From contig JAVRCV020000081.1 of NCBI GenBank assembly GCA_034530615.2, positions 1 to 49,178 on the forward strand: 49,178 bases of DNA, given 5' to 3'. This stretch comes from Aulosira sp. ZfuVER01 (GTDB taxonomy: Bacteria; Cyanobacteriota; Cyanobacteriia; Cyanobacteriales; Nostocaceae). Shown in pieces: positions 13,399 through 38,915 of the stretch (position 1 is the first letter of the stretch; each line of letters opens with the position of its first letter). The notes below the pieces were generated by a model. It ran no database searches. It was not told the DNA's origin and saw nothing but the letters and a program-made list of their open reading frames with translations. Both the position numbers and the translations under genes were made by a program.

Positions 13399-16300
13399 TT
13401 ACCTATTTGCCAAATATTGATACATCTGCCAACGTGCATCTACTTCCGCTTGCGCTTGTTCTAGCAGTTGTTTCGCAACTTCTGGCTTACTCTTAGTGAG
13501 CATTTTGAAGCGATTTTCTTGATACATTGATTGCTCTACCGATTGCTTAGGCGCTTTCATATCCAATTGCAAGGGATTCTTACCATCTTTGTGTAACTCA
13601 GGGTTATATCGATACAGCAACCAACGACCTGATTCTACCAGTGCTTTTTGCTGATTCATGCCTGTGGTCATGTTAATCCCGTGGGCGATGCAATGGCTGT
13701 AAGCAATAATCAACGATGGGCCGTTGAATGCTTCGGCTTCCAAAAATGCTCTCAGGGTATGTTCATCTCTTGCACCCAAAGCTACACTTGCTACGTAGAC
13801 ATTACCGTAGGTCATGGCGATTAAACCTAAGTCTTTTTTGGGCGCAGGCTTACCATTGGCGGCAAATTTTGCTACGGCTGCTTTTGGGGTAGCTTTTGAT
13901 GATTGTCCGCCTGTGTTGGAATATACCTCTGTATCCATAACCAAGATATTCACATTGCGACCACTGGCTAAAACATGGTCGATACCGCCAAAGTCAATAT
14001 CATAAGCCCAGCCGTCACCGCCAACAATCCAAACGCTTTTTTTGACGAGGTAATCTGCGATCGCTTTGAGTGTTTGGATTTGGGATTTAAGATTGAGGTC
14101 TGTTGCAGAATTGATGATTTCATCTAGTCGTTTTTTCAACAACTCTACTCGTTCCCGCTGTTCCCAAATGTCAGCTTCGGTGTTTTGCGTGGCGTTGAGG
14201 ATAGAGTTAATTAGGTTATCGTCGATTTTACTGCTCAATTTTTGCAGTAGTTCCGCCGCAAATTCCGCTTGTTTATCTAAAGAAAGGCGGAAGCCATAAC
14301 CAAATTCGGCGTTATCTTCAAATAAACTATTAGACCATGCTGGGCCTCTTCCTTCGGCGTTGGTTGTCCAGGGGGTTGTGGGTAAATTTCCGCCGTAGAT
14401 GGAAGAACAACCGGTAGCATTGGCAATGACTGAGCGATCGCCAAACAGTTGGGTTAATAATTTTAAATAGGGTGTCTCGCCACAACCAGCACAAGCACCA
14501 GAAAATTCAAATAATGGTTCTTGTAGTTGTTGTTGGCGAATTTGGGTGAGTTTCAGTTGTCTGCGGTCGGGATTAGGCAAACTTAAGAAGAAATCCCAGT
14601 TTTTGCGCTCTTGTTCCCGCAAAGGTAACTGCTGTGCCATATTAATGGCTTTTTTCAACGGCTCAGATTTATTTTTGGCTGGGCACACATTCACACAAAT
14701 GACGCAGCCTGTACAATCTTCTGGGGCTACTTGAATGGTAAATTTTTGATTGGCAAAGTCTCTATCTTTCGCATCAACAGACTTAAAGCTTGTCGGTGCA
14801 TTAACTAATTCACTAGATTGATACGCCTTAGCACGGATGGCACTGTGGGGACAAACCATCACACATTTACCACATTGTACGCAGACATCTCCATCCCATA
14901 CAGGAATTTCTTCGGCTACGTTGCGTTTTTCCCATTTGGTTGTACCTGTGGGAAATGTGCCGTCAGGTGGTAGCGTACTTACAGGTAAATCATCACCTTC
15001 CCATACCATGATTTTACTGAGGACTTCGCGGACAAATTCCGGGGCGCTGTCCAGCAATTGTGGATTTTCGCTTTGGGATTTGGGATGGTGAATTGTCTGG
15101 GGGATGTCTACTTTATATAAGTTAGCCAGGGTGTTGTCTACGGCTTGCAGATTCATGCGGACAACTTCCGCGCCTTTTTTACCGTAGGTTTTCTCAATCG
15201 CTTGTTTGATTTTAGCGATCGCTTCTTCTTGTGGTAAGACATTAGCTAAGGCAAAGAAGCACACCTGCATAATTGTGTTAATCCTACCGCCCATACCACT
15301 ACTACGGGCAACCTGGTTAGCATTAATCACGTATAACTTCAGGTGCTTGTCGATAATTTGCTGCTGTACCTTCACAGGTAACTGTTTCCAAACAGTATCC
15401 GCATCATAGGGACTGTTAACTAAAATAGTCGCCCCAGGAATCGCCGCTTTGAGAATGTCAATGTTTTCTAAAAATCCCCAATGATGACAACCAATAAAAT
15501 TGGCTTTGTCAATTAGGTAGGTTGACCGAATTGGCTGGAGTCCGAAGCGCAGGTGAGAAACTGTCATCGAACCAGATTTCTTGGAGTCGTAGACAAAGTA
15601 ACCTTGGGCGTAGTTGTCTGTTTCTTCACCAATAATCTTAATGGAGTTTTTGTTAGCGCCTACTGTACCATCAGAACCTAACCCGTAGAACATCGCCCGG
15701 ACAACGTTATCAGGTTCGGTTGAGAAGTTAGGATCAAAATTCAAGGATGTATGGCTAACATCGTCATTAATACCGATAGTAAAATGATTTTTCGGTGCAG
15801 GTAAAGCGAGATTGTCGAAAATCCCCTTCACCATCGCCGGGGTAAATTCTTTCGAGGAAAGACCGTAGCGACCACAGATGATTTTGGGAGATGAAGGAGA
15901 TGAGGCTTTCCCTGCTCCCCATCCCTCATGAATTGCAGCTACCACATCCAAATAAAGTGGCTCCCCGGCGCTACCTGGTTCTTTGGTGCGGTCGAGGACG
16001 GCGATCGCTTTTACACTATTAGGTAAGACTGCGACAAATCTTTCTACATCAAAGGGGCGATAAAGTCGCACTTTCACAACACCGACTTTTTCCCGCTGGT
16101 TGTTGAGGTAATCTACTGTTTCATGGACAGTTTCACAGCCGGAACCCATAATGACAATCACGCGCTCGGCATCTGGTGCGCCATGATATTCATAGATTTG
16201 ATAATACCTGCCCGTGCGATCGCCAAATTGATCCATGATACGCTGGACAATTTCGGGAGTAGCGCTGTAGTAAGGGTTAGCGCCTTCACGAGATTGGAAG

Positions 16301-16977
16301 TAAATATCGGGGTTTTGGGCTGTACCCCTGAGTACTGGGCGGTCTGGGGTGAGGGCGCGGGCGCGGTGGGCTAATATGAGATTGTCGTTGATGAGCGATC
16401 GCAAATCATCATCAGAAAGTAGTTTCACTTTCTGCACTTCATGAGAGGTGCGGAAGCCGTCAAAGAAGTGCATAAATGGCACTCGCGCCTCTAAAGTTGC
16501 AGCATAGGCAATAAGGGCAAAATCAAGATTCTCCTGTACTGAAGCTGAACACAGCAGCGCAAAGCCTGTAGCGCGGGCTGCCATCACATCGCTATGATCG
16601 CCGAAAATTGATAAGGCATGGGTAGCTAAAGAACGTGCAGCGACGTGAATTGTGGCGCTTGTTAATTCCCCAGCAATTTTGTAGAGATTGGGTATCATCA
16701 ACAATAATCCCTGAGATGCAGTGAAGGTAGTACTCAGGGAACCCGTTTGCAACGCCCCATGCACCGCACCAGCCGCGCCACCTTCACTTTGCATCTGCAC
16801 GACACTGGGAACAGTACCCCAAAGATTCGCACGGCCTTCAGCTGACCAAGCATCCGCCCATTCACCCATTGTTGAAGAGGGGGTAATCGGGTAAATAGCA
16901 ATTACTTCATTTAATTTGTAAGCAATACGGGAGACAGCTTCATTCCCGTCAATAGTAGCAAAAATTTTGTTCATCAT
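13399..16977 (-). CDS. nifJ: Pyruvate:ferredoxin (flavodoxin) oxidoreductase
   Basis: DGNEA, YPITPS, GLGSDGTVGANKN, two 4Fe-4S motifs (CVQCGKC..CP, CTGCVICVNVCP), FSGACAGCGET and GGDGWAYDI. Confidence 0.97.
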   Translation of the reverse strand: MMNKIFATIDGNEAVSRIAYKLNEVIAIYPITPSSTMGEWADAWSAEGRANLWGTVPSVVQMQSEGGAAGAVHGALQTGSLSTTFTASQGLLLMIPNLYKIAGELTSATIHVAARSLATHALSIFGDHSDVMAARATGFALLCSASVQENLDFALIAYAATLEARVPFMHFFDGFRTSHEVQKVKLLSDDDLRSLINDNLILAHRARALTPDRPVLRGTAQNPDIYFQSREGANPYYSATPEIVQRIMDQFGDRTGRYYQIYEYHGAPDAERVIVIMGSGCETVHETVDYLNNQREKVGVVKVRLYRPFDVERFVAVLPNSVKAIAVLDRTKEPGSAGEPLYLDVVAAIHEGWGAGKASSPSSPKIICGRYGLSSKEFTPAMVKGIFDNLALPAPKNHFTIGINDDVSHTSLNFDPNFSTEPDNVVRAMFYGLGSDGTVGANKNSIKIIGEETDNYAQGYFVYDSKKSGSMTVSHLRFGLQPIRSTYLIDKANFIGCHHWGFLENIDILKAAIPGATILVNSPYDADTVWKQLPVKVQQQIIDKHLKLYVINANQVARSSGMGGRINTIMQVCFFALANVLPQEEAIAKIKQAIEKTYGKKGAEVVRMNLQAVDNTLANLYKVDIPQTIHHPKSQSENPQLLDSAPEFVREVLSKIMVWEGDDLPVSTLPPDGTFPTGTTKWEKRNVAEEIPVWDGDVCVQCGKCVMVCPHSAIRAKAYQSSELVNAPTSFKSVDAKDRDFANQKFTIQVAPEDCTGCVICVNVCPAKNKSEPLKKAINMAQQLPLREQERKNWDFFLSLPNPDRRQLKLTQIRQQQLQEPLFEFSGACAGCGETPYLKLLTQLFGDRSVIANATGCSSIYGGNLPTTPWTTNAEGRGPAWSNSLFEDNAEFGYGFRLSLDKQAEFAAELLQKLSSKIDDNLINSILNATQNTEADIWEQRERVELLKKRLDEIINSATDLNLKSQIQTLKAIADYLVKKSVWIVGGDGWAYDIDFGGIDHVLASGRNVNILVMDTEVYSNTGGQSSKATPKAAVAKFAANGKPAPKKDLGLIAMTYGNVYVASVALGARDEHTLRAFLEAEAFNGPSLIIAYSHCIAHGINMTTGMNQQKALVESGRWLLYRYNPELHKDGKNPLQLDMKAPKQSVEQSMYQENRFKMLTKSKPEVAKQLLEQAQAEVDARWQMYQYLANR

Positions 16978-17755: not shown

Positions 17756-20251
17756 TTACTGCTGCTGACTTTTTTCTTGAAGGAGCGATCGCCAATCAGC
17801 AATTGCTTTTTCTGTCCACAACCAATTATTACTTAATTTATTTACCTGGAAGTTTAGCGGATCATCCTTCATCACCATTTGGCGAAGTTTGATCGCTTCA
17901 TTCATATATTGAGATTGTTTATCAGTCGATTGTTTAGATGCAGATTTATACAAACCCAGAGCCAAACCTGCATAGGAAGTTAAAGCATCCTTAGGTATGG
18001 TTGCTGATTTTATAGATGCTGATGTAGAACTAGTAAGGTTCTGTTGTTTCAAAGCTAAATTTAAAGCCTTAAACCAAGAGTCATTAGCTTTATTTAAATT
18101 TTCTTCAGCGTAGTAAGCAAACCCCAAGGCATTGTTATACAAAAACGAATCTGGGTCAGCTTGTACAGCACTTTCCCAGTAACGGCGAGCATCATCAACG
18201 CTATATTTTTTATCTTTAATTTGGACGAATTGCCAAGCTAATCTTCCTTTAAAAAAGTTGACAGCGGGATTATTGGCTTGCTTTTGCGGCACAAGATTTA
18301 AAGCTGCTTGCGCAGGCGGAAGTGCGCCACGGTTAAGTAGTTCTTCTACAGCCTCTAGTCCACCTTGCAAATCACCTTGGCTCAATTTTTCTGTAGCAGT
18401 AGCACTAACAATTCCAGTTGCAGCCGTCTTTAAATCGATAGGAGGTTGATTTTCGGCTGTGATTGACTGGGTAGGAATTGCTGGGATGTCTGGTAATCTT
18501 GCAAATGGGCGATTTTGCCACCAATTCAGACCAACAATCACTGCGATCGCACTTGCTCCCACCATCCCAACAATAGGCCAAATCTGGCGTCGGTGGCGTC
18601 GTTTTGCGGAGAATTGTTGTGAGCGTCCAGAAGCGGAATCATGCCAATCGTTGGCAAAAGTTGTTGAGGTTTCAGTTGATGCGATCGGATTTTCTTCCCA
18701 AAAGCTGGCTTCCTGATCCGGAACAGCCATCTCCTGAGAAACTTGTCTTGACCGTAGACCACTGTCATTTATTTGCTGCACAAGTTCCGCAGTCATAGGA
18801 GATTGCTCAGATGTTCCATTTTGATGATCTAGCTGGCGAAACAAATCGGAAACCAGAGCTGAATCTTCTGCATAGCTTGGGTCATCATACTCAATTTCAT
18901 CAACGAGATCGCCCCAGGTTTCCTCTCCTAGCCAATCCAAACCCGAAGATTCCCTTGCTGCTAAACCAGAGGGGATCATATCATCCATTGCTAAAGGCAT
19001 CTCAGACTCATCTGCTACAGCAGAGTACATCGCAGTTTGATTTGCTCTTAAAGCTGGATTGTAATCATTCAACATCTCTCCACTTTCAGGAAGTTCTGGG
19101 CTGAGAAAACCGTCAAATTCCGGTTGCAGATAGAGAATTGGTAACGCCCAGTACATCTGGTGAGAACCGTAGGCAGAAATTAATCCCTGGCGTACCCGAC
19201 TTACGCATAAATCCACAGGATAGCCCTGATTCAGGTTGCGATAAAACAGTTGTGTGAGTGTCAGCGCTACTTCATCAGGGATTCGCTCTGACATCGCTAA
19301 CACACTTCTGATACCGCGTTTGACCAAACTTTCTGTGAGGTTACGTTCTCCTGTTTCTTCAGTAGTATCAGAGTTAGCTCTGTATGCGCCCAAACAGGAG
19401 TTAAACACTGCCATTTGGATATTATTGTTGACGAGCAAGCCTGCCAAATCGTCTCCACTTAAGGTTTCCGTTAAACCAGTTCTGCTACTAACCAGATAAA
19501 TTTCACCGCCATTGGCACCTAAGTTACTATGACCAGAGTAGTGCAGAACATGGTATCGCCCTTGTTCCAGCGCCTGCGTTAATTCTTCCCGCCCTGGTTG
19601 GTCTAGCAATGTAAGTTCTATATCTGGAACATAATTGCCACTTTCAGCAACTCGCGGTACATAGCGGTTAAGTTCTGCTTGGAGTTTGATGGCCTCATGT
19701 TTGAGCAAATCGAGACGGGCTTGATCCGTAGGAGACGCAATCACCATCAATACTTTGACGCCGCCTTCTTCTAGCGGTTGGGGTATATTTTTCGATGGCA
19801 AACGAGAAGGTGGCAGAATCCCATTTTGGTAGCGAGAAAAAGCGACATAAGGCCCAGTGGCTAGAGGACGATCCCCTGCGTGCATTACTTCCCAAGGCAA
19901 ACGAGCTAATCTAGTGTCTTTTAGCCCTAAACGTAAGCGCAGTACCTGTTGGTGGTTCTGGGCAATACCTTGTGCTGTAATCCAACTATCTCTGAGAGTG
20001 CCTTGAAACAGTGCATTATAAAGTTGCTGACCCAACGCCACTAGGTTTACAGAGTTTCTTGCGAACGCATCCCCTTGCAATACTGACTTCAACGGGTCAT
20101 TCATCAGATGCCCAGCCGCAGCTAACCAATCAGCTACAGGCCAAGTCACCAGTTCTTCTGCCAATGGCACCCCAGGCGCGACTTGTTCCGTCCGCACCAA
20201 GTAGTCATTTTGCCCTACTGGGGTTACGGAAATGTGAAATTCCTGGGTCAC
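17756..20251 (-). CDS. hetF: Heterocyst differentiation / cell-division protease HetF (CHAT domain)
   Basis: MTQEFHISVTPVG N-terminus, CHAT motifs LPWE, HYSGHS and VFNSCLG (His/Cys dyad), acidic linker, TM helix and TPR-like C-terminus. Lies next to the NsiR1-type array. Confidence 0.93.
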   Translation of the reverse strand: MTQEFHISVTPVGQNDYLVRTEQVAPGVPLAEELVTWPVADWLAAAGHLMNDPLKSVLQGDAFARNSVNLVALGQQLYNALFQGTLRDSWITAQGIAQNHQQVLRLRLGLKDTRLARLPWEVMHAGDRPLATGPYVAFSRYQNGILPPSRLPSKNIPQPLEEGGVKVLMVIASPTDQARLDLLKHEAIKLQAELNRYVPRVAESGNYVPDIELTLLDQPGREELTQALEQGRYHVLHYSGHSNLGANGGEIYLVSSRTGLTETLSGDDLAGLLVNNNIQMAVFNSCLGAYRANSDTTEETGERNLTESLVKRGIRSVLAMSERIPDEVALTLTQLFYRNLNQGYPVDLCVSRVRQGLISAYGSHQMYWALPILYLQPEFDGFLSPELPESGEMLNDYNPALRANQTAMYSAVADESEMPLAMDDMIPSGLAARESSGLDWLGEETWGDLVDEIEYDDPSYAEDSALVSDLFRQLDHQNGTSEQSPMTAELVQQINDSGLRSRQVSQEMAVPDQEASFWEENPIASTETSTTFANDWHDSASGRSQQFSAKRRHRRQIWPIVGMVGASAIAVIVGLNWWQNRPFARLPDIPAIPTQSITAENQPPIDLKTAATGIVSATATEKLSQGDLQGGLEAVEELLNRGALPPAQAALNLVPQKQANNPAVNFFKGRLAWQFVQIKDKKYSVDDARRYWESAVQADPDSFLYNNALGFAYYAEENLNKANDSWFKALNLALKQQNLTSSTSASIKSATIPKDALTSYAGLALGLYKSASKQSTDKQSQYMNEAIKLRQMVMKDDPLNFQVNKLSNNWLWTEKAIADWRSLLQEKSQQQ

Positions 20252-20431
20252 AACTTTTCCTACTCGCCTCCTGAATCTGGTTTGAAACGCGAAAGTTTCA
20301 AGTCGATTTTTCGCTTCTTCTGATACCTTAGATGCATCTTGCCACCGAATGTTTCTGATTTCTCGTTATTTTACTTTTTTGGCTTTGACAACTTTATCCG
20401 GATTCTTTGGCATCGAAGTAGAACACTTTAT

Positions 20432-20493
20432 TGGTAGATGCACCTTGATCTTCGACTCCCCTGGTTGGCGAATGCCTACTTGGGGATTTTTTT
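20432..20493 (+). ncRNA. nsiR1: NsiR1 copy 1 (nearest hetF, antisense to its upstream leader)
   Basis: TCCGGA at 20397. TGGTAGATGCACCTTGATC core, then hairpin and T-run. Confidence 0.85.
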
Positions 20494-20544
20494 GTTGGCA
20501 AATAGCAACACTAATCCGGGCATTCTCAAGTGAGGTACAGGGTT

Positions 20545-20596
20545 TAACACCCCTCCTGCATTTCCTTACCATCTGGAATCCACTAAGGTTTTTTTT
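20545..20596 (+). ncRNA. Highly degenerate NsiR1-like unit 2
   Basis: TCCGGG at 20515. The core is lost but a CCTTA..TAAGG-T8 hairpin sits at the expected position. Confidence 0.35.
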
Positions 20597-20666
20597 AGCA
20601 CAGAACTAAAATACACATTTTAGTAAATTTATCCGGAGGATGGCAGTTCCCCAAAGAACAGTTAAA

Positions 20667-20727
20667 TGGTAGATGCACCCTGATAACTAACTCCCCTGGT
20701 TGGCTAACGCTGACTAGGGGCTTTTTT
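20667..20727 (+). ncRNA. nsiR1: NsiR1 copy 3
   Basis: TCCGGA at 20632, consensus core, terminator. Confidence 0.85.
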
Positions 20728-20797
20728 ATGCTTGGTAAACTACAACAAACTCATGAAATCTCTCCGGATGATGATAGTTATCTGGAGAACAATTAAA

Positions 20798-20860
20798 TGG
20801 TAGATGCACCCTGATAACTAACTCCCCTAGTAGGCTCAAACCCACTGGGGGATTTTTTTT
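20798..20860 (+). ncRNA. nsiR1: NsiR1 copy 4
   Basis: TCCGGA at 20763, consensus core, terminator. Confidence 0.85.
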
Positions 20861-20935
20861 CTGGTTGACACAACTGATAATCATGATTGTGACAATTTCA
20901 TCCGGAGCTTACTTATTTCTTCGAGAACAATTAAA

Positions 20936-20997
20936 TGGTAGATGCACCCTGATAATTAACTCCCCTAGCTGGTTGGTACCCACTAGGGGATTTTTTT
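20936..20997 (+). ncRNA. nsiR1: NsiR1 copy 5
   Basis: TCCGGA at 20901, consensus core, terminator. Confidence 0.85.
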
Positions 20998-21070
20998 GGT
21001 TGGCACAACTGATAATCATGATTGTGACAATTTCATCCGGAGCTTACTTATTTTTTCGAGAACAATTAAA

Positions 21071-21132
21071 TGGTAGATGCACCCTGATAACTAACTCCCC
21101 TAGCTGGTTGATACCCATTAGGGGATTTTTTT
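21071..21132 (+). ncRNA. nsiR1: NsiR1 copy 6
   Basis: TCCGGA at 21036, consensus core, terminator. Confidence 0.85.
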
Positions 21133-21203
21133 ATTGTTACCACTAACACATCTCTTATGAGAATTTTATCCGGATTATAGTAGTTGCACTGAGAATAGTT
21201 AAG

Positions 21204-21263
21204 TGGTAGATGCACCCTAATAACTAACTCCCCTAATTGGCTGCCACCAATAAGGGGTTTTTT
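21204..21263 (+). ncRNA. nsiR1: NsiR1 copy 7
   Basis: TCCGGA at 21169, core TGGTAGATGCACCCTAATAA, terminator. Confidence 0.85.
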
Positions 21264-21336
21264 ATGGGTAATCGCTAGCCACTCTCTGCGTCATCATTTT
21301 ATCCAGATTATAGTAGTTGCCCTGAGAATAGTTAAG

Positions 21337-21394
21337 TAATAAGTGTACCCTGATAATCTACTCCCCTAGTTGTCTTAAGCAACTAGGGGTTTTT
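21337..21394 (+). ncRNA. nsiR1: NsiR1 copy 8 (divergent 5' end)
   Basis: TCCAGA at 21302, core TAATAAGTGTACCCTGATAA, strong terminator. Confidence 0.7.
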
Positions 21395-21465
21395 CATGAA
21401 CCACTAGCTACCTATATGTGATATTTTTATCCGGATTATGGTATCGACGTTGAGAATATAGAAAT

Positions 21466-21522
21466 TAATAGATGCACCCTGATAATCCACTCTCCTGGTA
21501 GGCTGCCACCACTCGGGTTTTT
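21466..21522 (+). ncRNA. nsiR1: NsiR1 copy 9 (variant)
   Basis: TCCGGA at 21430, core TAATAGATGCACCCTGATAA, weakened hairpin. Confidence 0.75.
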
Positions 21523-21595
21523 GTGTTTAGCCAATAGTCACCCCGTTTGTAACAATTTTATCCGGATCGGATAGATTGTTTCGAGAACAATGAAT

Positions 21596-21654
21596 TGGTA
21601 GATGCACCCTGATAACTAACTCCCCTGGTAGGCTAGTACCTACTAGGGGTTTTT
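21596..21654 (+). ncRNA. nsiR1: NsiR1 copy 10
   Basis: TCCGGA at 21561, consensus core, terminator. Confidence 0.85.
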
Positions 21655-21729
21655 CCTACTTAAGACAATAACAATATTCCTTTAAATAAATTTATCCGGA
21701 AGATTGTACTTAACCCAAGAACAATGAAT

Positions 21730-21789
21730 TGGTAGATGCACCCTGATAACTAACTCCCCTGGTAGGCTAGTACCTACTAGGGGTTTTTT
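21730..21789 (+). ncRNA. nsiR1: NsiR1 copy 11
   Basis: TCCGGA at 21695, consensus core, terminator. Confidence 0.85.
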
Positions 21790-21865
21790 CATTATGGAAA
21801 AAATCACAATATTCCTTATAAATAAATTTATCCGGAAGATTGTACTTAACCCGAGAACAATGAAT

Positions 21866-21924
21866 TGGTAGATGCACCCTGATAAATAACTCCCCTGGTA
21901 GGCTAGTACCTACTGGGGTTTTTT
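21866..21924 (+). ncRNA. nsiR1: NsiR1 copy 12
   Basis: TCCGGA at 21831, consensus core, terminator. Confidence 0.85.
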
Positions 21925-22000
21925 CATACTTAAAAAAAATAACAATATCCCTTTAGATAAACTTATCCGGAAGATTGTACTTAACCCGAGAACAATGAAT

Positions 22001-22062
22001 TGGTAGATGCACCCTGATAACTAACTCCCCTAGTAGGCTAGTACTTGACTGGGGATTTTTTT
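22001..22062 (+). ncRNA. nsiR1: NsiR1 copy 13
   Basis: TCCGGA at 21966, consensus core, terminator. Confidence 0.85.
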
Positions 22063-22674
22063 GAGGAGATAGTTTGCGTCTAGCTGACTACTGATTAGGC
22101 ACTGAGGGCAATATTCTAACACAACAAACGTGCTATTACCATTTTTGCCACTGCCCAACGAAATTAATTCTAGATTTTGCGGTTTAGTGATCGCCTAGCT
22201 AGTAGTTATTTTTAATTAAGTATATCTTATCATTATTTTGTTAGCTCTAGATGTCCAGTTCCTGACTAACTTTTACACTTTCATAGGCTAGAAGGCTTAT
22301 ACAATAGTTATTTCAGGGGATAATTGCCAAAACTGTTAATTATTTCTCTATAATTTCTCTTTGTGAATTGCCCCGACATATGCCATCTCAAGCTGGAAGG
22401 CGCTTTAAGTCTCATAAGACGTTGCTTTGTTAGCCATGTTCTTTCTTCAACATCTGCAGATAAATGTCTTCCTAGTTTTACACAACTTCTTTGGTCTGGC
22501 AACTTTTGTGTTGCTACTTTAATTTATAAGCAATCCAATTTGATTAACAAACTACTCATGGAGGCAGTAGGCAATAGATTTGTTTGCAACTCCTACATAG
22601 ATTGCTATATATGCAGATCTTGAATGTTTTATACTAGATGTAGTTTGCTTATATCCCAAGAGTGGCAAAGTCAG

Positions 22675-22998
22675 ATGAATTTAGCGGTAATTAAGTTCTC
22701 CTCAGAAGAATGTGGCATTTGTCACAAAATGTCTTTTTATGACAAAAAGGTAGCTGAAGAACTGGGTTTAGAATTTATTGATGTCAAAATGCAGGATACA
22801 GCTACTTACCGCAAGTATCGCAAGATTTTGTTAACTCAGTATCCCGATAAATCAGAAATGGGATGGCCTACTTATATTCTCTGTGATTCTCCTGAAGGAG
22901 AGTTTCAGATTATCGGTGAGGTCAAAGGGGGTCATCCCAAAGGCGAGTTTAGAAGCCGTCTACAAGAAGTTTTAAATTCCACAGCTAGTCAGAATTGA
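22675..22998 (+). CDS. Thioredoxin-family protein
   Basis: VIKFSSEECGIC (CxxC) and cis-Pro GWPT motif. The likely start is ATG 22675 rather than 22624. Confidence 0.8.
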   Translation: MNLAVIKFSSEECGICHKMSFYDKKVAEELGLEFIDVKMQDTATYRKYRKILLTQYPDKSEMGWPTYILCDSPEGEFQIIGEVKGGHPKGEFRSRLQEVLNSTASQN

Positions 22999-23303: not shown

Positions 23304-25157
23304 TTAAGCTACTTGCCTTTCATTTTTCAACGCTAAACGAGCTAATCCATAACAGAGTAGGGCATTAGCAATGAGGAAGATACGAGCTAAGTAACTACTG
23401 CCTAATCCCCAAACTGTAGGATCGTAAACTGCACTCACCGTTAAACATGCAGCCACACCAAGGGTAGAACCGATGGCAAACCATTTACCACTAGGATGTC
23501 CCAGCAGCAATGCAACCAGAACGATGGGAATCAGTACACTGGCAAATAAAGGATTTAAAGCATTGGTTCCCTGGAGAGTGTTGCCTAATTCGGGAATGGA
23601 ACTACCTAACAGCCGGAAAGGCCACTGGGGAAGGTCAAAGATATAAAATCCCTTGAGGAAGAATAGTCCAGAACTGCCAGCAATTAAACCACTGGATAAA
23701 GACCAACTCCAAGCAAAAGGAAAGTAAACCCGTAAAAACCAAGCTAGTAGATAGGAACCTACTACCATCAAAATCTTGGGTAATAGTGCTACAGCACCGC
23801 CATCAATCCAAAATCCAGGGTTAAGATAGCCATTATCCCTTAACCAACGGAAGAAGTCAGAGAAACTAATTTGACCTTCAGTGGCAAGTTTAACTGCTGC
23901 TTCAGCATTTAGCTGCCCAGCACCGTAGTAATTCAAACCATCGTCTTGGATAACTCGGGAAGATTGTTTGAGGACTTGCAAAACTTCATCGGGATCTGTA
24001 ACGCCTTTGGCTTTGATGAGCGCAGCGACACCAGCAACATGAGGGGATGCCATACTTGTACCTTGGAAGCCAAGAAAAACCCCTTCACCCTTTTCGTTGA
24101 TTGTCTCTTGCAGAATCTTGCCAGCCTCGCTACCACCAGGGGCAGAGATATCTACCCCAGCACCAAAGTTAGAGTAAGGGGCTTTTTCTCCATCCGGGCC
24201 GAATGCGGAGACACCGATGACATGAGGATAACGGGCTGGATAGCTGGCCCCATTAGCATTTTCGTTGCCAGCCGCCGCCACAATGACAACGCCTTTGTTG
24301 TGGGCATAGTCAATGGCTTGCTTCATTAACTGACTTTCACCGCCACCACCCAAGCTCATATTAATTACATCTGCGCCTTTATCAGCAGCAAATTTAATGG
24401 CTTCGGCAATATCGGCAACCGTCCCACCACCATAATCATTCAAAACCTTTAATGGCATGAGATTGGCTTCGTAGGCAATGCCAGCTACGCCATATTTGTT
24501 ATTGGTGGCTTGAGCGATCGTACCTGCAACATGGGTACCATGTCCGTTATCGTCTGTGGCTTCTTCTCGGTCGTTAACGAAATCGTAGCCTTTGACAAAT
24601 TTTGTTTCATATAAGTCGCGCACGCGAGTTATACCAGTATCAATGACAGCAACCGTAATGCCACTGCCTTTGGTTTGGCTCCACGCGCCTTCAATACCGA
24701 TGTTGTGGAAGTTCCACTGCTTGCTGTAATACTGGTCGTTGGGGCCAGTTAATGAAGGGGTAATTTCCTCTTCATCTGCATTGGGTTTTAAAAATTCTCC
24801 CAAAAAAGCAACTTCACCCGGTTGGGGAATTTTTTTGTAAATATAATTTGGCTCGATAAATTCTGTAGCTGACTTGAATTGAGATTTTTGCAGTTCTTTC
24901 AGCCGTTGGCGATCGCCTTTGATAATATACACATTATCTTTGGCTGAAAATTTATTATCCAATTGGGGTGTAACCTGGTATTGTTGAGCGATCGCTTGCA
25001 AATCTTTTTCTACTACCTCTTTGGGTATATCTTCCCGAAAATCAAGCAGAATCGTCTCAAACTCACCTTTGGCTGCTAGTCCTTGAAAATTGAGAAACCC
25101 AAATACAGCAGCCCCCAGCCCAATGACAAACAAGCAAAATAATATAAGCCTTCTCAT
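23304..25157 (-). CDS. Membrane-anchored S8 (subtilisin) serine peptidase
   Basis: Catalytic triad motifs VAVIDTG, HGTHVAG and GTSMASPHVAG. N-terminal signal/TM, prodomain and multi-TM C-terminus. Confidence 0.93.
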   Translation of the reverse strand: MRRLILFCLFVIGLGAAVFGFLNFQGLAAKGEFETILLDFREDIPKEVVEKDLQAIAQQYQVTPQLDNKFSAKDNVYIIKGDRQRLKELQKSQFKSATEFIEPNYIYKKIPQPGEVAFLGEFLKPNADEEEITPSLTGPNDQYYSKQWNFHNIGIEGAWSQTKGSGITVAVIDTGITRVRDLYETKFVKGYDFVNDREEATDDNGHGTHVAGTIAQATNNKYGVAGIAYEANLMPLKVLNDYGGGTVADIAEAIKFAADKGADVINMSLGGGGESQLMKQAIDYAHNKGVVIVAAAGNENANGASYPARYPHVIGVSAFGPDGEKAPYSNFGAGVDISAPGGSEAGKILQETINEKGEGVFLGFQGTSMASPHVAGVAALIKAKGVTDPDEVLQVLKQSSRVIQDDGLNYYGAGQLNAEAAVKLATEGQISFSDFFRWLRDNGYLNPGFWIDGGAVALLPKILMVVGSYLLAWFLRVYFPFAWSWSLSSGLIAGSSGLFFLKGFYIFDLPQWPFRLLGSSIPELGNTLQGTNALNPLFASVLIPIVLVALLLGHPSGKWFAIGSTLGVAACLTVSAVYDPTVWGLGSSYLARIFLIANALLCYGLARLALKNERQVA

Positions 25158-27852: not shown

Positions 27853-28209
<357 letters not shown>

Positions 28210-38842: not shown

Positions 38843-38915
38843 CCAGGGTTGGCCGAGCGGTTGAGGCAGCGAACTCATAATTCGCCCAAGGCAGGTTCAA
38901 CTCCTGCACCCTGGA
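38843..38915 (+). tRNA. tRNA with CAT anticodon, probably tRNA-Ile2 (lysidine type)
   Basis: Acceptor CCAGGGT/ACCCTGG, D-arm GCCG..AGGC, anticodon arm GCGAA-CTCATAA-TTCGC and T-arm GCAGG-TTCAACT-CCTGC. No encoded CCA. Confidence 0.93.

Follow-up and report, generated by a model that had tools for sequence, protein, structure and literature searches.

Twelve NsiR1-type small-RNA units upstream of hetF in Aulosira sp. ZfuVER01 and a candidate pairing site at the hetZ-patU junction

In a 49-kb stretch of DNA from Aulosira sp. ZfuVER01 (49,178 nucleotides, hereafter the window), we analyzed an NsiR1-type tandem array that extends from 20397 to 22063 on the plus strand. On the basis of family membership, promoter motif, layout, and copy number, we read this array as an NsiR1 locus of 12 head-to-tail copies, each with its own sigma-HetZ promoter and each likely giving an RNA of ~60 nt that is predicted to repress by seed pairing; we assign this reading a probability of about 0.93. 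The array consists of 12 intact units and one decayed slot, not of 13 units. It is an already described system, and the locus itself adds nothing new: NsiR1 arrays beside hetF are known and are present in most relatives. What is possibly new is a candidate site for NsiR1 at patU. The features of the array and its neighbor hetF are as follows.

17756..20251, minus strand: hetF, 831 aa, CHAT/caspase-HetF protease (NCBIfam NF045509, Pfam CHAT, open reading frame)
20397..20493, plus strand: unit 1 (nsiR1.1 type), promoter TCCGGA at 20397, body 20432-20493, Rfam 57.7 bits
20515..20600, strand unassigned: decayed slot 2, TCCGGG without a -10 and without a seed; not an sRNA gene
20632..20728, plus strand: unit 3, promoter at 20632, body 20667-20728, Rfam 71.1 bits
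20763..20859, plus strand: unit 4, promoter at 20763, body 20798-20859, Rfam 73.6 bits
20901..20997, plus strand: unit 5, promoter at 20901, body 20936-20997, Rfam 69.4 bits
21036..21132, plus strand: unit 6, promoter at 21036, body 21071-21132, Rfam 67.3 bits
21169..21265, plus strand: unit 7, promoter at 21169, body 21204-21265, one seed change, Rfam 61.2 bits
21302..21397, plus strand: unit 8, TCCAGA promoter, body about 21337-21397, Rfam 39.5 bits (E-value scan)
21430..21526, plus strand: unit 9, promoter at 21430, body 21466-21526, Rfam 31.1 bits, E 0.0013, below the gathering score
21561..21657, plus strand: unit 10, promoter at 21561, body 21596-21657, Rfam 70.1 bits
21695..21791, plus strand: unit 11, promoter at 21695, body 21730-21791, Rfam 71.9 bits
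21831..21927, plus strand: unit 12, promoter at 21831, body 21866-21927, Rfam 64.8 bits
21966..22063, plus strand: unit 13 (last), promoter at 21966, body 22001-22063, Rfam 59.1 bits

An E-value scan with Rfam RF02399 (NsiR1) returned 12 matches between 20432 and 22063. Eleven units scored at least 39 bits, at or above the gathering score of the family, and unit 9 (31.1 bits) fell below it; a scan of the window at the gathering score matched 10 units. An earlier note, made from the letters alone, had named the array as NsiR1 and proposed an Infernal-type check, and the 12 matches bear out that identification. Its placement of the array upstream of hetF was likewise confirmed by the gene at 17756-20251 on the minus strand, which was called hetF by the equivalog NF045509 (1526 bits against a cut-off of 1200). 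The array lies upstream of this gene on the opposite strand, with unit 1 181 nt from the hetF start codon, a layout like that of PCC 7120.

In the available text of PMC9045159, PCC 7120 is described as carrying 12 tandem nsiR1 copies upstream of hetF, all with DIF1 promoters of their own; NsiR1.1 runs antisense to the hetF 5' UTR, and NsiR1.4 represses alr3234. The hetF-linked layout is also given in bioRxiv 2020.09.09.290692 (in part), and NsiR1 expression has been described as early and in single differentiating cells (PMC4030482, in part). The Aulosira array resembles that of PCC 7120 in its tandem ~60-nt sRNA genes with DIF1 promoters, upstream of and opposite to hetF, in the variant first copy adjoining hetF (here with the seed CCTTGATC), and in unit 6, whose 5' half reads identical by eye to the NsiR1 sequence in the portion of the PMC4734099 supplement that we compared. 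It differs in three respects. The 12 copies of PCC 7120 include nsiR1.2, whereas in Aulosira slot 2 has decayed and there are 12 units besides it; seven central copies are identical there, whereas here we found 11 distinct bodies among 12 units (units 10 and 11 being identical over 58 nt); and the Aulosira genome yielded no alr3234-type HetP paralogue.

The motif TCCGGA-N17-AGAA occurred 11 times in the 49-kb window, always on the plus strand and always within 20397-21992, compared with a mean of 0.05 and a maximum of 1 in 100 shuffles of the window. The twelfth unit has TCCAGA at 21302 in place of TCCGGA. In all 12 units, the body begins 35 to 36 nt past the first T of the promoter motif, the offset that the earlier note had reported. 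Intact units are spaced 128 to 138 nt apart, with a single exception, a 235-nt gap; of the spacings of 117 to 138 nt given earlier, those of 117 to 118 nt arise from the TCCGGG at 20515. Mean pairwise identity was 89% over the 5' 21 nt, 79% over the 58-nt body, 53% in the linkers, and 46% in the N18 spacer, which agrees with the previous description of a conserved body between variable linkers. Folding gave a canonical GC-rich 3' hairpin followed by a U-run in 10 of 12 bodies, and in 11 of 12 when unit 6 is counted, in which that hairpin is embedded in a longer structure. The minimum-energy fold of unit 9 is without the canonical hairpin, and the hairpin is weak. The GC hairpin and U-tract once attributed to every unit hold for most of them, and a strict terminator scan called 5 of 12. 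Unit 8 has a diverged 5' seed with an intact terminator; units 8 and 9, both diverged, may be weak or dead.

Could such a regular repeat be something other than a set of sRNA genes? The ~133-nt period might suggest a CRISPR-like or selfish repeat, and two chance open reading frames of 86 and 93 aa overlap the array and might suggest small proteins. We give these explanations practically no credence. The units all hit a curated sRNA family, and each comes with a promoter and ends in a hairpin followed by U residues; neither reading frame has a Pfam match, and the position beside hetF is conserved in relatives. A CRISPR array was rejected, since the Rfam scan of the window contained no CRISPR repeat family, the repeats carry a promoter and a terminator, and the linkers are 53% alike and related to one another, rather than being unique spacers (as had also been noted from the letters).

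Each unit carries a promoter-like motif, as proposed previously, which we consider better read as a sigma-HetZ promoter, TCCGGA-N17-AGAA, than as TCCGGA-N18-GAA(C/T)A. According to the available text of PMC13342950, HetZ is the sigma factor of DIF1 promoters, with the consensus TCCGGA-N16-17-TGNA, in which A is tolerated at -13 and -11 (T-13 and T-11 being replaceable); the nine promoters from which this consensus was obtained included one of nsiR1. All 12 units fit N17-AGAA, unit 8 with one change at -35 (TCCAGA), and slot 2 does not fit. Like the published DIF1 promoters (PMC13342950 and PMC7377430, both in part), the units have TCCGGA-N17-(A)GAA with the predicted RNA start 8 to 9 nt further on, and the consensus fits; unlike them, the -10 of every unit is AGAA rather than TGNA. 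In the part of the PMC13342950 dataset available, a HetZ ChIP peak lies over nsiR1(1-12) and drops in the hetZ mutant. By RNA-seq in the same source, the hetZ4-201 mutant, which is called leaky, has nsiR1(1-12) marked as up. This listing does not fit a simple dependence on HetZ. Two sigma70-like minus-strand sites (10 of 12 positions), at 21335-21307 and 21202-21174, coincide in part with the unit 8 and unit 7 promoters and face hetF. They would make antisense transcription of the array possible, but such sites number only 8 in the array region, with 5.1 expected.

The earlier note had counted 13 sRNA genes, and if its second unit were a diverged yet active copy, this count would stand. The TCCGGG at 20515 lies one period from its neighbors, a T-run follows ~70 nt later, and in PCC 7120 nsiR1.2 is counted at the slot 2 position (bioRxiv 2020.09.09.290692, in part). 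However, we rejected this thirteenth unit: it has no AGAA or other -10 and no seed, is 31 to 47% identical to the bodies, folds weakly (-6.5 kcal/mol), and has no Rfam match at E ≤ 10. The same region is also without a unit in relatives. We fetched 14 same-genus loci, of which 13 include hetF, and compared the sequences of 7 (the window's own included). In 13 of the 13 loci reaching hetF, the first gap measured 200 to 250 nt and contained neither a seed-bearing unit nor TCCGG(A/G). We therefore regard an active thirteenth gene as very improbable.

What might occupy the decayed slot? In PCC 7120, the hetF transcription start site (TSS) is placed at -256, inside nsiR1.2 (bioRxiv 2020.09.09.290692, in part). 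A start placed likewise in Aulosira would fall near 20507, in the decayed slot, and by this analogy slot 2 likely holds the hetF promoter on the minus strand, and unit 1 is likely antisense to the hetF 5' UTR, on which it would act as a cis-antisense RNA. By duplex energies, copies other than unit 1 pair less well with the hetF leader. In PCC 7120, removal of the nsiR1.1 -10 box is described as changing hetF-gfp little (bioRxiv 2020.09.09.290692, in part), which argues against a strong cis effect.

We next consider the array as a source of trans-acting RNA. By analogy with PCC 7120, each unit would be transcribed from its own sigma-HetZ (DIF1) promoter into an RNA of ~60 nt in differentiating cells, and the cell specificity of this expression would follow that described there. 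The conserved 5' seed of these RNAs is predicted to pair with mRNAs and so repress them. Since the seed is far better conserved than the hairpin, the spacer, or the linker, the multiple copies likely add to the dose of one seed rather than diversify it. This arrangement resembles that of sibling multicopy trans-acting sRNAs, such as NsiR1.4 acting on alr3234, which have an unpaired 5' seed followed by a terminator hairpin.

NsiR1 scored over the cut-off in 33 of 41 genomes searched, including 24 of 24 members of the window's family with a match, and hetF lay inside 21 of the 29 best NsiR1 loci of relatives. The seed was unchanged in 159 of 185 units of relatives, and 15 more carried the unit 1 variant. 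Across 141 genomes sampled over the phylum, among which kin are not independent, NsiR1 over the cut-off and a true hetZ were found in the same 37. Eighteen of these 37 genomes fall outside the window's family. The available part of the PMC4734099 supplement gives NsiR1 homologues in 38 genomes, 27 of them heterocystous.

The genome of Aulosira contains one HetP-family gene. We scored duplexes, without preselection, over 12,526 candidate start regions that belong to 7,207 open reading frames called mechanically; the two candidate start regions of the HetP-family gene ranked 8,654 and 11,270 (copy 4). An alr3234-type target was accordingly rejected: with a single HetP-family gene and a poor match, the published trans target is not evident here. 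The seed is nearly invariant across filamentous cyanobacteria, yet this target is missing from the Aulosira genome. What, then, fixes the seed?

The best candidate for a trans target is the translation start of patU, an inhibitor of cell differentiation, at the hetZ-patU junction.

Locus L037:3300-3370, contig C5, minus strand: hetZ-patU site, with hetZ at 4517-3327 and patU at 3334-2354

We tentatively propose that NsiR1 represses patU, at odds somewhat short of even. With copy 1 the junction came first among the 12,526 regions (-31.4 kcal/mol), and with copy 4 it came 11th. No region had a longer perfect seed complement: for copy 1 it measured 12 nt and was alone at that length, and for copy 4 it measured 11 nt and was tied with three other regions; the other top matches of the energy scan were mostly long, bulged duplexes without a clean seed. 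Ten of 12 copies pair with the site at -21 kcal/mol or better, unit 9 pairs at -20.5, and unit 8 is the weakest at -13.1. Between the end of the site and the ATG of a 326-aa gene there are 2 nt, and this gene overlaps the hetZ end. The hetZ call was made with NF037963 (653 bits against a cut-off of 550). The 326-aa gene had no NCBIfam match at E ≤ 1e-10, and we call it patU because a member of its 90%-identity cluster carries the annotation PatU and because it follows hetZ. As with sibling sRNAs that block translation initiation, the predicted site takes in the bases immediately before the start codon; unlike theirs, the target patU is a prediction of this analysis. In the portions of the literature searched (including PMC11797042 and PMC9045159), patU was not found as an NsiR1 target, and neither patU nor hetZ occurs in the available text of PMC9045159; Ionescu 2010, Brenes-Alvarez 2020, or supplements may predict it.

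Conservation of the junction bears on this proposal. We kept 25 hetZ genes for comparison and left out 5 of 30 loci whose extracted reading frames were short, continued too far, or stopped at another place. Of 135 four-fold columns, only 4 were invariant, and all 4 lie at the hetZ-patU site. Two of them form TCCGGA, the -35 of a HetZ-dependent patU promoter, and the published HetZ promoter accounts for these two invariant synonymous sites; the other two are inside the seed match. A perfect sigma-HetZ promoter lies within the last hetZ codons, as does the 12-nt stretch that is fully complementary to the unit 1 seed. A DIF1-type site was located in 83 of 90 hetZ ends (4 of them anchored on a neighboring motif), and in 52 of these 83 loci no other part of the hetZ end matched NsiR1 better. 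Real codons paired better than synonymous recodings at 32 of 36 distinct in-frame sites, by a mean of -4.7 kcal/mol; this count excluded duplicates, TCCTGA variants, 8 sites that follow a stop codon, and 2 sites out of frame. Among 150 shuffled probes, the best reached -2.2 against recodings, in a comparison for which the site itself had been picked with the NsiR1 probe. Three registers of pairing occur, all with the same seed.

An explanation to which we give slightly better than even odds is that the patU-junction match is not an NsiR1 target and is kept by the DNA of the sigma-HetZ promoter, by an SD-like AGGTG, and by the C-terminal residues of HetZ, with complementarity to NsiR1 as a by-product. 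A perfect TCCGGA-N17-TGAA promoter has the site as its spacer, so that the site overlaps this promoter, and it also overlaps a ribosome-binding position. Some of the real-codon preference is also seen with an anti-SD probe, which gains 1.55 kcal/mol and favors real codons at 27 of 36 sites; this probe used a generic motif, because the assembly yielded no 16S 3' end. Against this, nt 3 to 15 of NsiR1 gain 4.17 kcal/mol over synonymous recodings at 35 of 36 sites, far above the anti-SD probe. A stop codon that comes earlier leaves the site noncoding in 16 loci, and 10 of these 16 still pair at -17.9 or better. The recurrence of the match in shifted registers also speaks for pairing.

In favor of the promoter explanation, HetZ activation of patU5-patU3 is published (PMC13342950, in part), and lineages in which the rest of the pairing is gone still have the core ATC. 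However, ATC at spacer positions 9 to 11 was found in 1 of 78 DIF1-type sites of the Aulosira genome and in 0 of 131 NsiR1 promoters, so conservation of the spacer is not general. Also weighing against targeting, the match is lost in 31 of 83 loci, where another part of the hetZ end matches NsiR1 better, and some of these loci belong to genomes that carry NsiR1 (G034, G097, G071, G045, and G186); 5 genomes with a central mismatch at the site have the usual seeds, with no compensating change in NsiR1; and patU5 is described as dispensable in PCC 7120 (PMC7377430, in part).

A true patU site would make an sRNA part of the HetZ-PatU core circuit of heterocyst patterning, which was defined recently. 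Through the patU translation start, sigma-HetZ would induce an RNA that lowers its own inhibitor. Only transcripts that start upstream in hetZ would carry the site; the internal patU transcript driven by sigma-HetZ would start just downstream of it and escape pairing. In a wider proposal, which we consider possible and somewhat less probable than not, pairing with the patU start and lowering of PatU would be the ancestral, family-wide job of NsiR1, and a second array, between gatB and argJ, would present the same seed under different control. Sigma-HetZ would then activate NsiR1, NsiR1 would repress PatU (as anti-sigma factor), and PatU would inhibit sigma-HetZ, a positive loop that may extend to all HetZ-bearing filamentous cyanobacteria.

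The search for further NsiR1-like copies yielded the following features.

Locus L034:4921-4971, contig C65, plus strand: solo NsiR1, 51.4 bits, TCCGGA promoter, between cobM and lgt
Locus L035:5012-5069, contig C4, minus strand: weak NsiR1-like unit, 33.5 bits, TCCCGA at -35
Locus L036:4590-5110, contig C24: seed-sharing sRNA-like array between gatB and argJ, outside the window

The weak unit lies just past a 210-aa gene that had no NCBIfam match and that we take to be ExoD-like. The gatB-argJ array comprises 3 units and a degenerate fourth, in which the NsiR1 5' seed precedes a U-run and a hairpin unlike that of NsiR1, the hairpin coming first. It was present in 28 of 41 genomes, including 24 of 24 of the same family, and had no Rfam match at E ≤ 1. 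Sigma70-like promoter hexamers were found in 23 of 25 units of this type, and DIF1 in 0 of 25. GGG-N5-CCC, given in the available text of PMC4192349 as the core of HetR sites, lies over the -35 region in 17 of 25. Sigma70-type promoters overlapped by a palindrome like a HetR site would deliver the seed under another control. The 5' end of this array also pairs with the patU site (-22.1 kcal/mol). By its seed string, the array is not among the 327 predicted sRNAs in the available PMC4734099 supplement; in the supplements of that source the string occurs once, as NsiR1 itself, and it is absent from the main texts of the literature searched. The gatB-argJ array is apparently an uncatalogued sibling of NsiR1.

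Other features of the window lie on both sides of the array. Just past it, a 124-aa open reading frame with a CxxC motif (22624-22998, plus strand) had no Pfam or NCBIfam match and is presumably thioredoxin-like. Beyond hetF lies a pyruvate:flavodoxin oxidoreductase at 13399-16977 (NCBIfam search). On the other side are an S8 peptidase with DUF5942 at 23304-25157 (Pfam), an open reading frame at 27871-28209 that we take to be PII/glnB-like, and one tRNA at 38843-38915 (Rfam).
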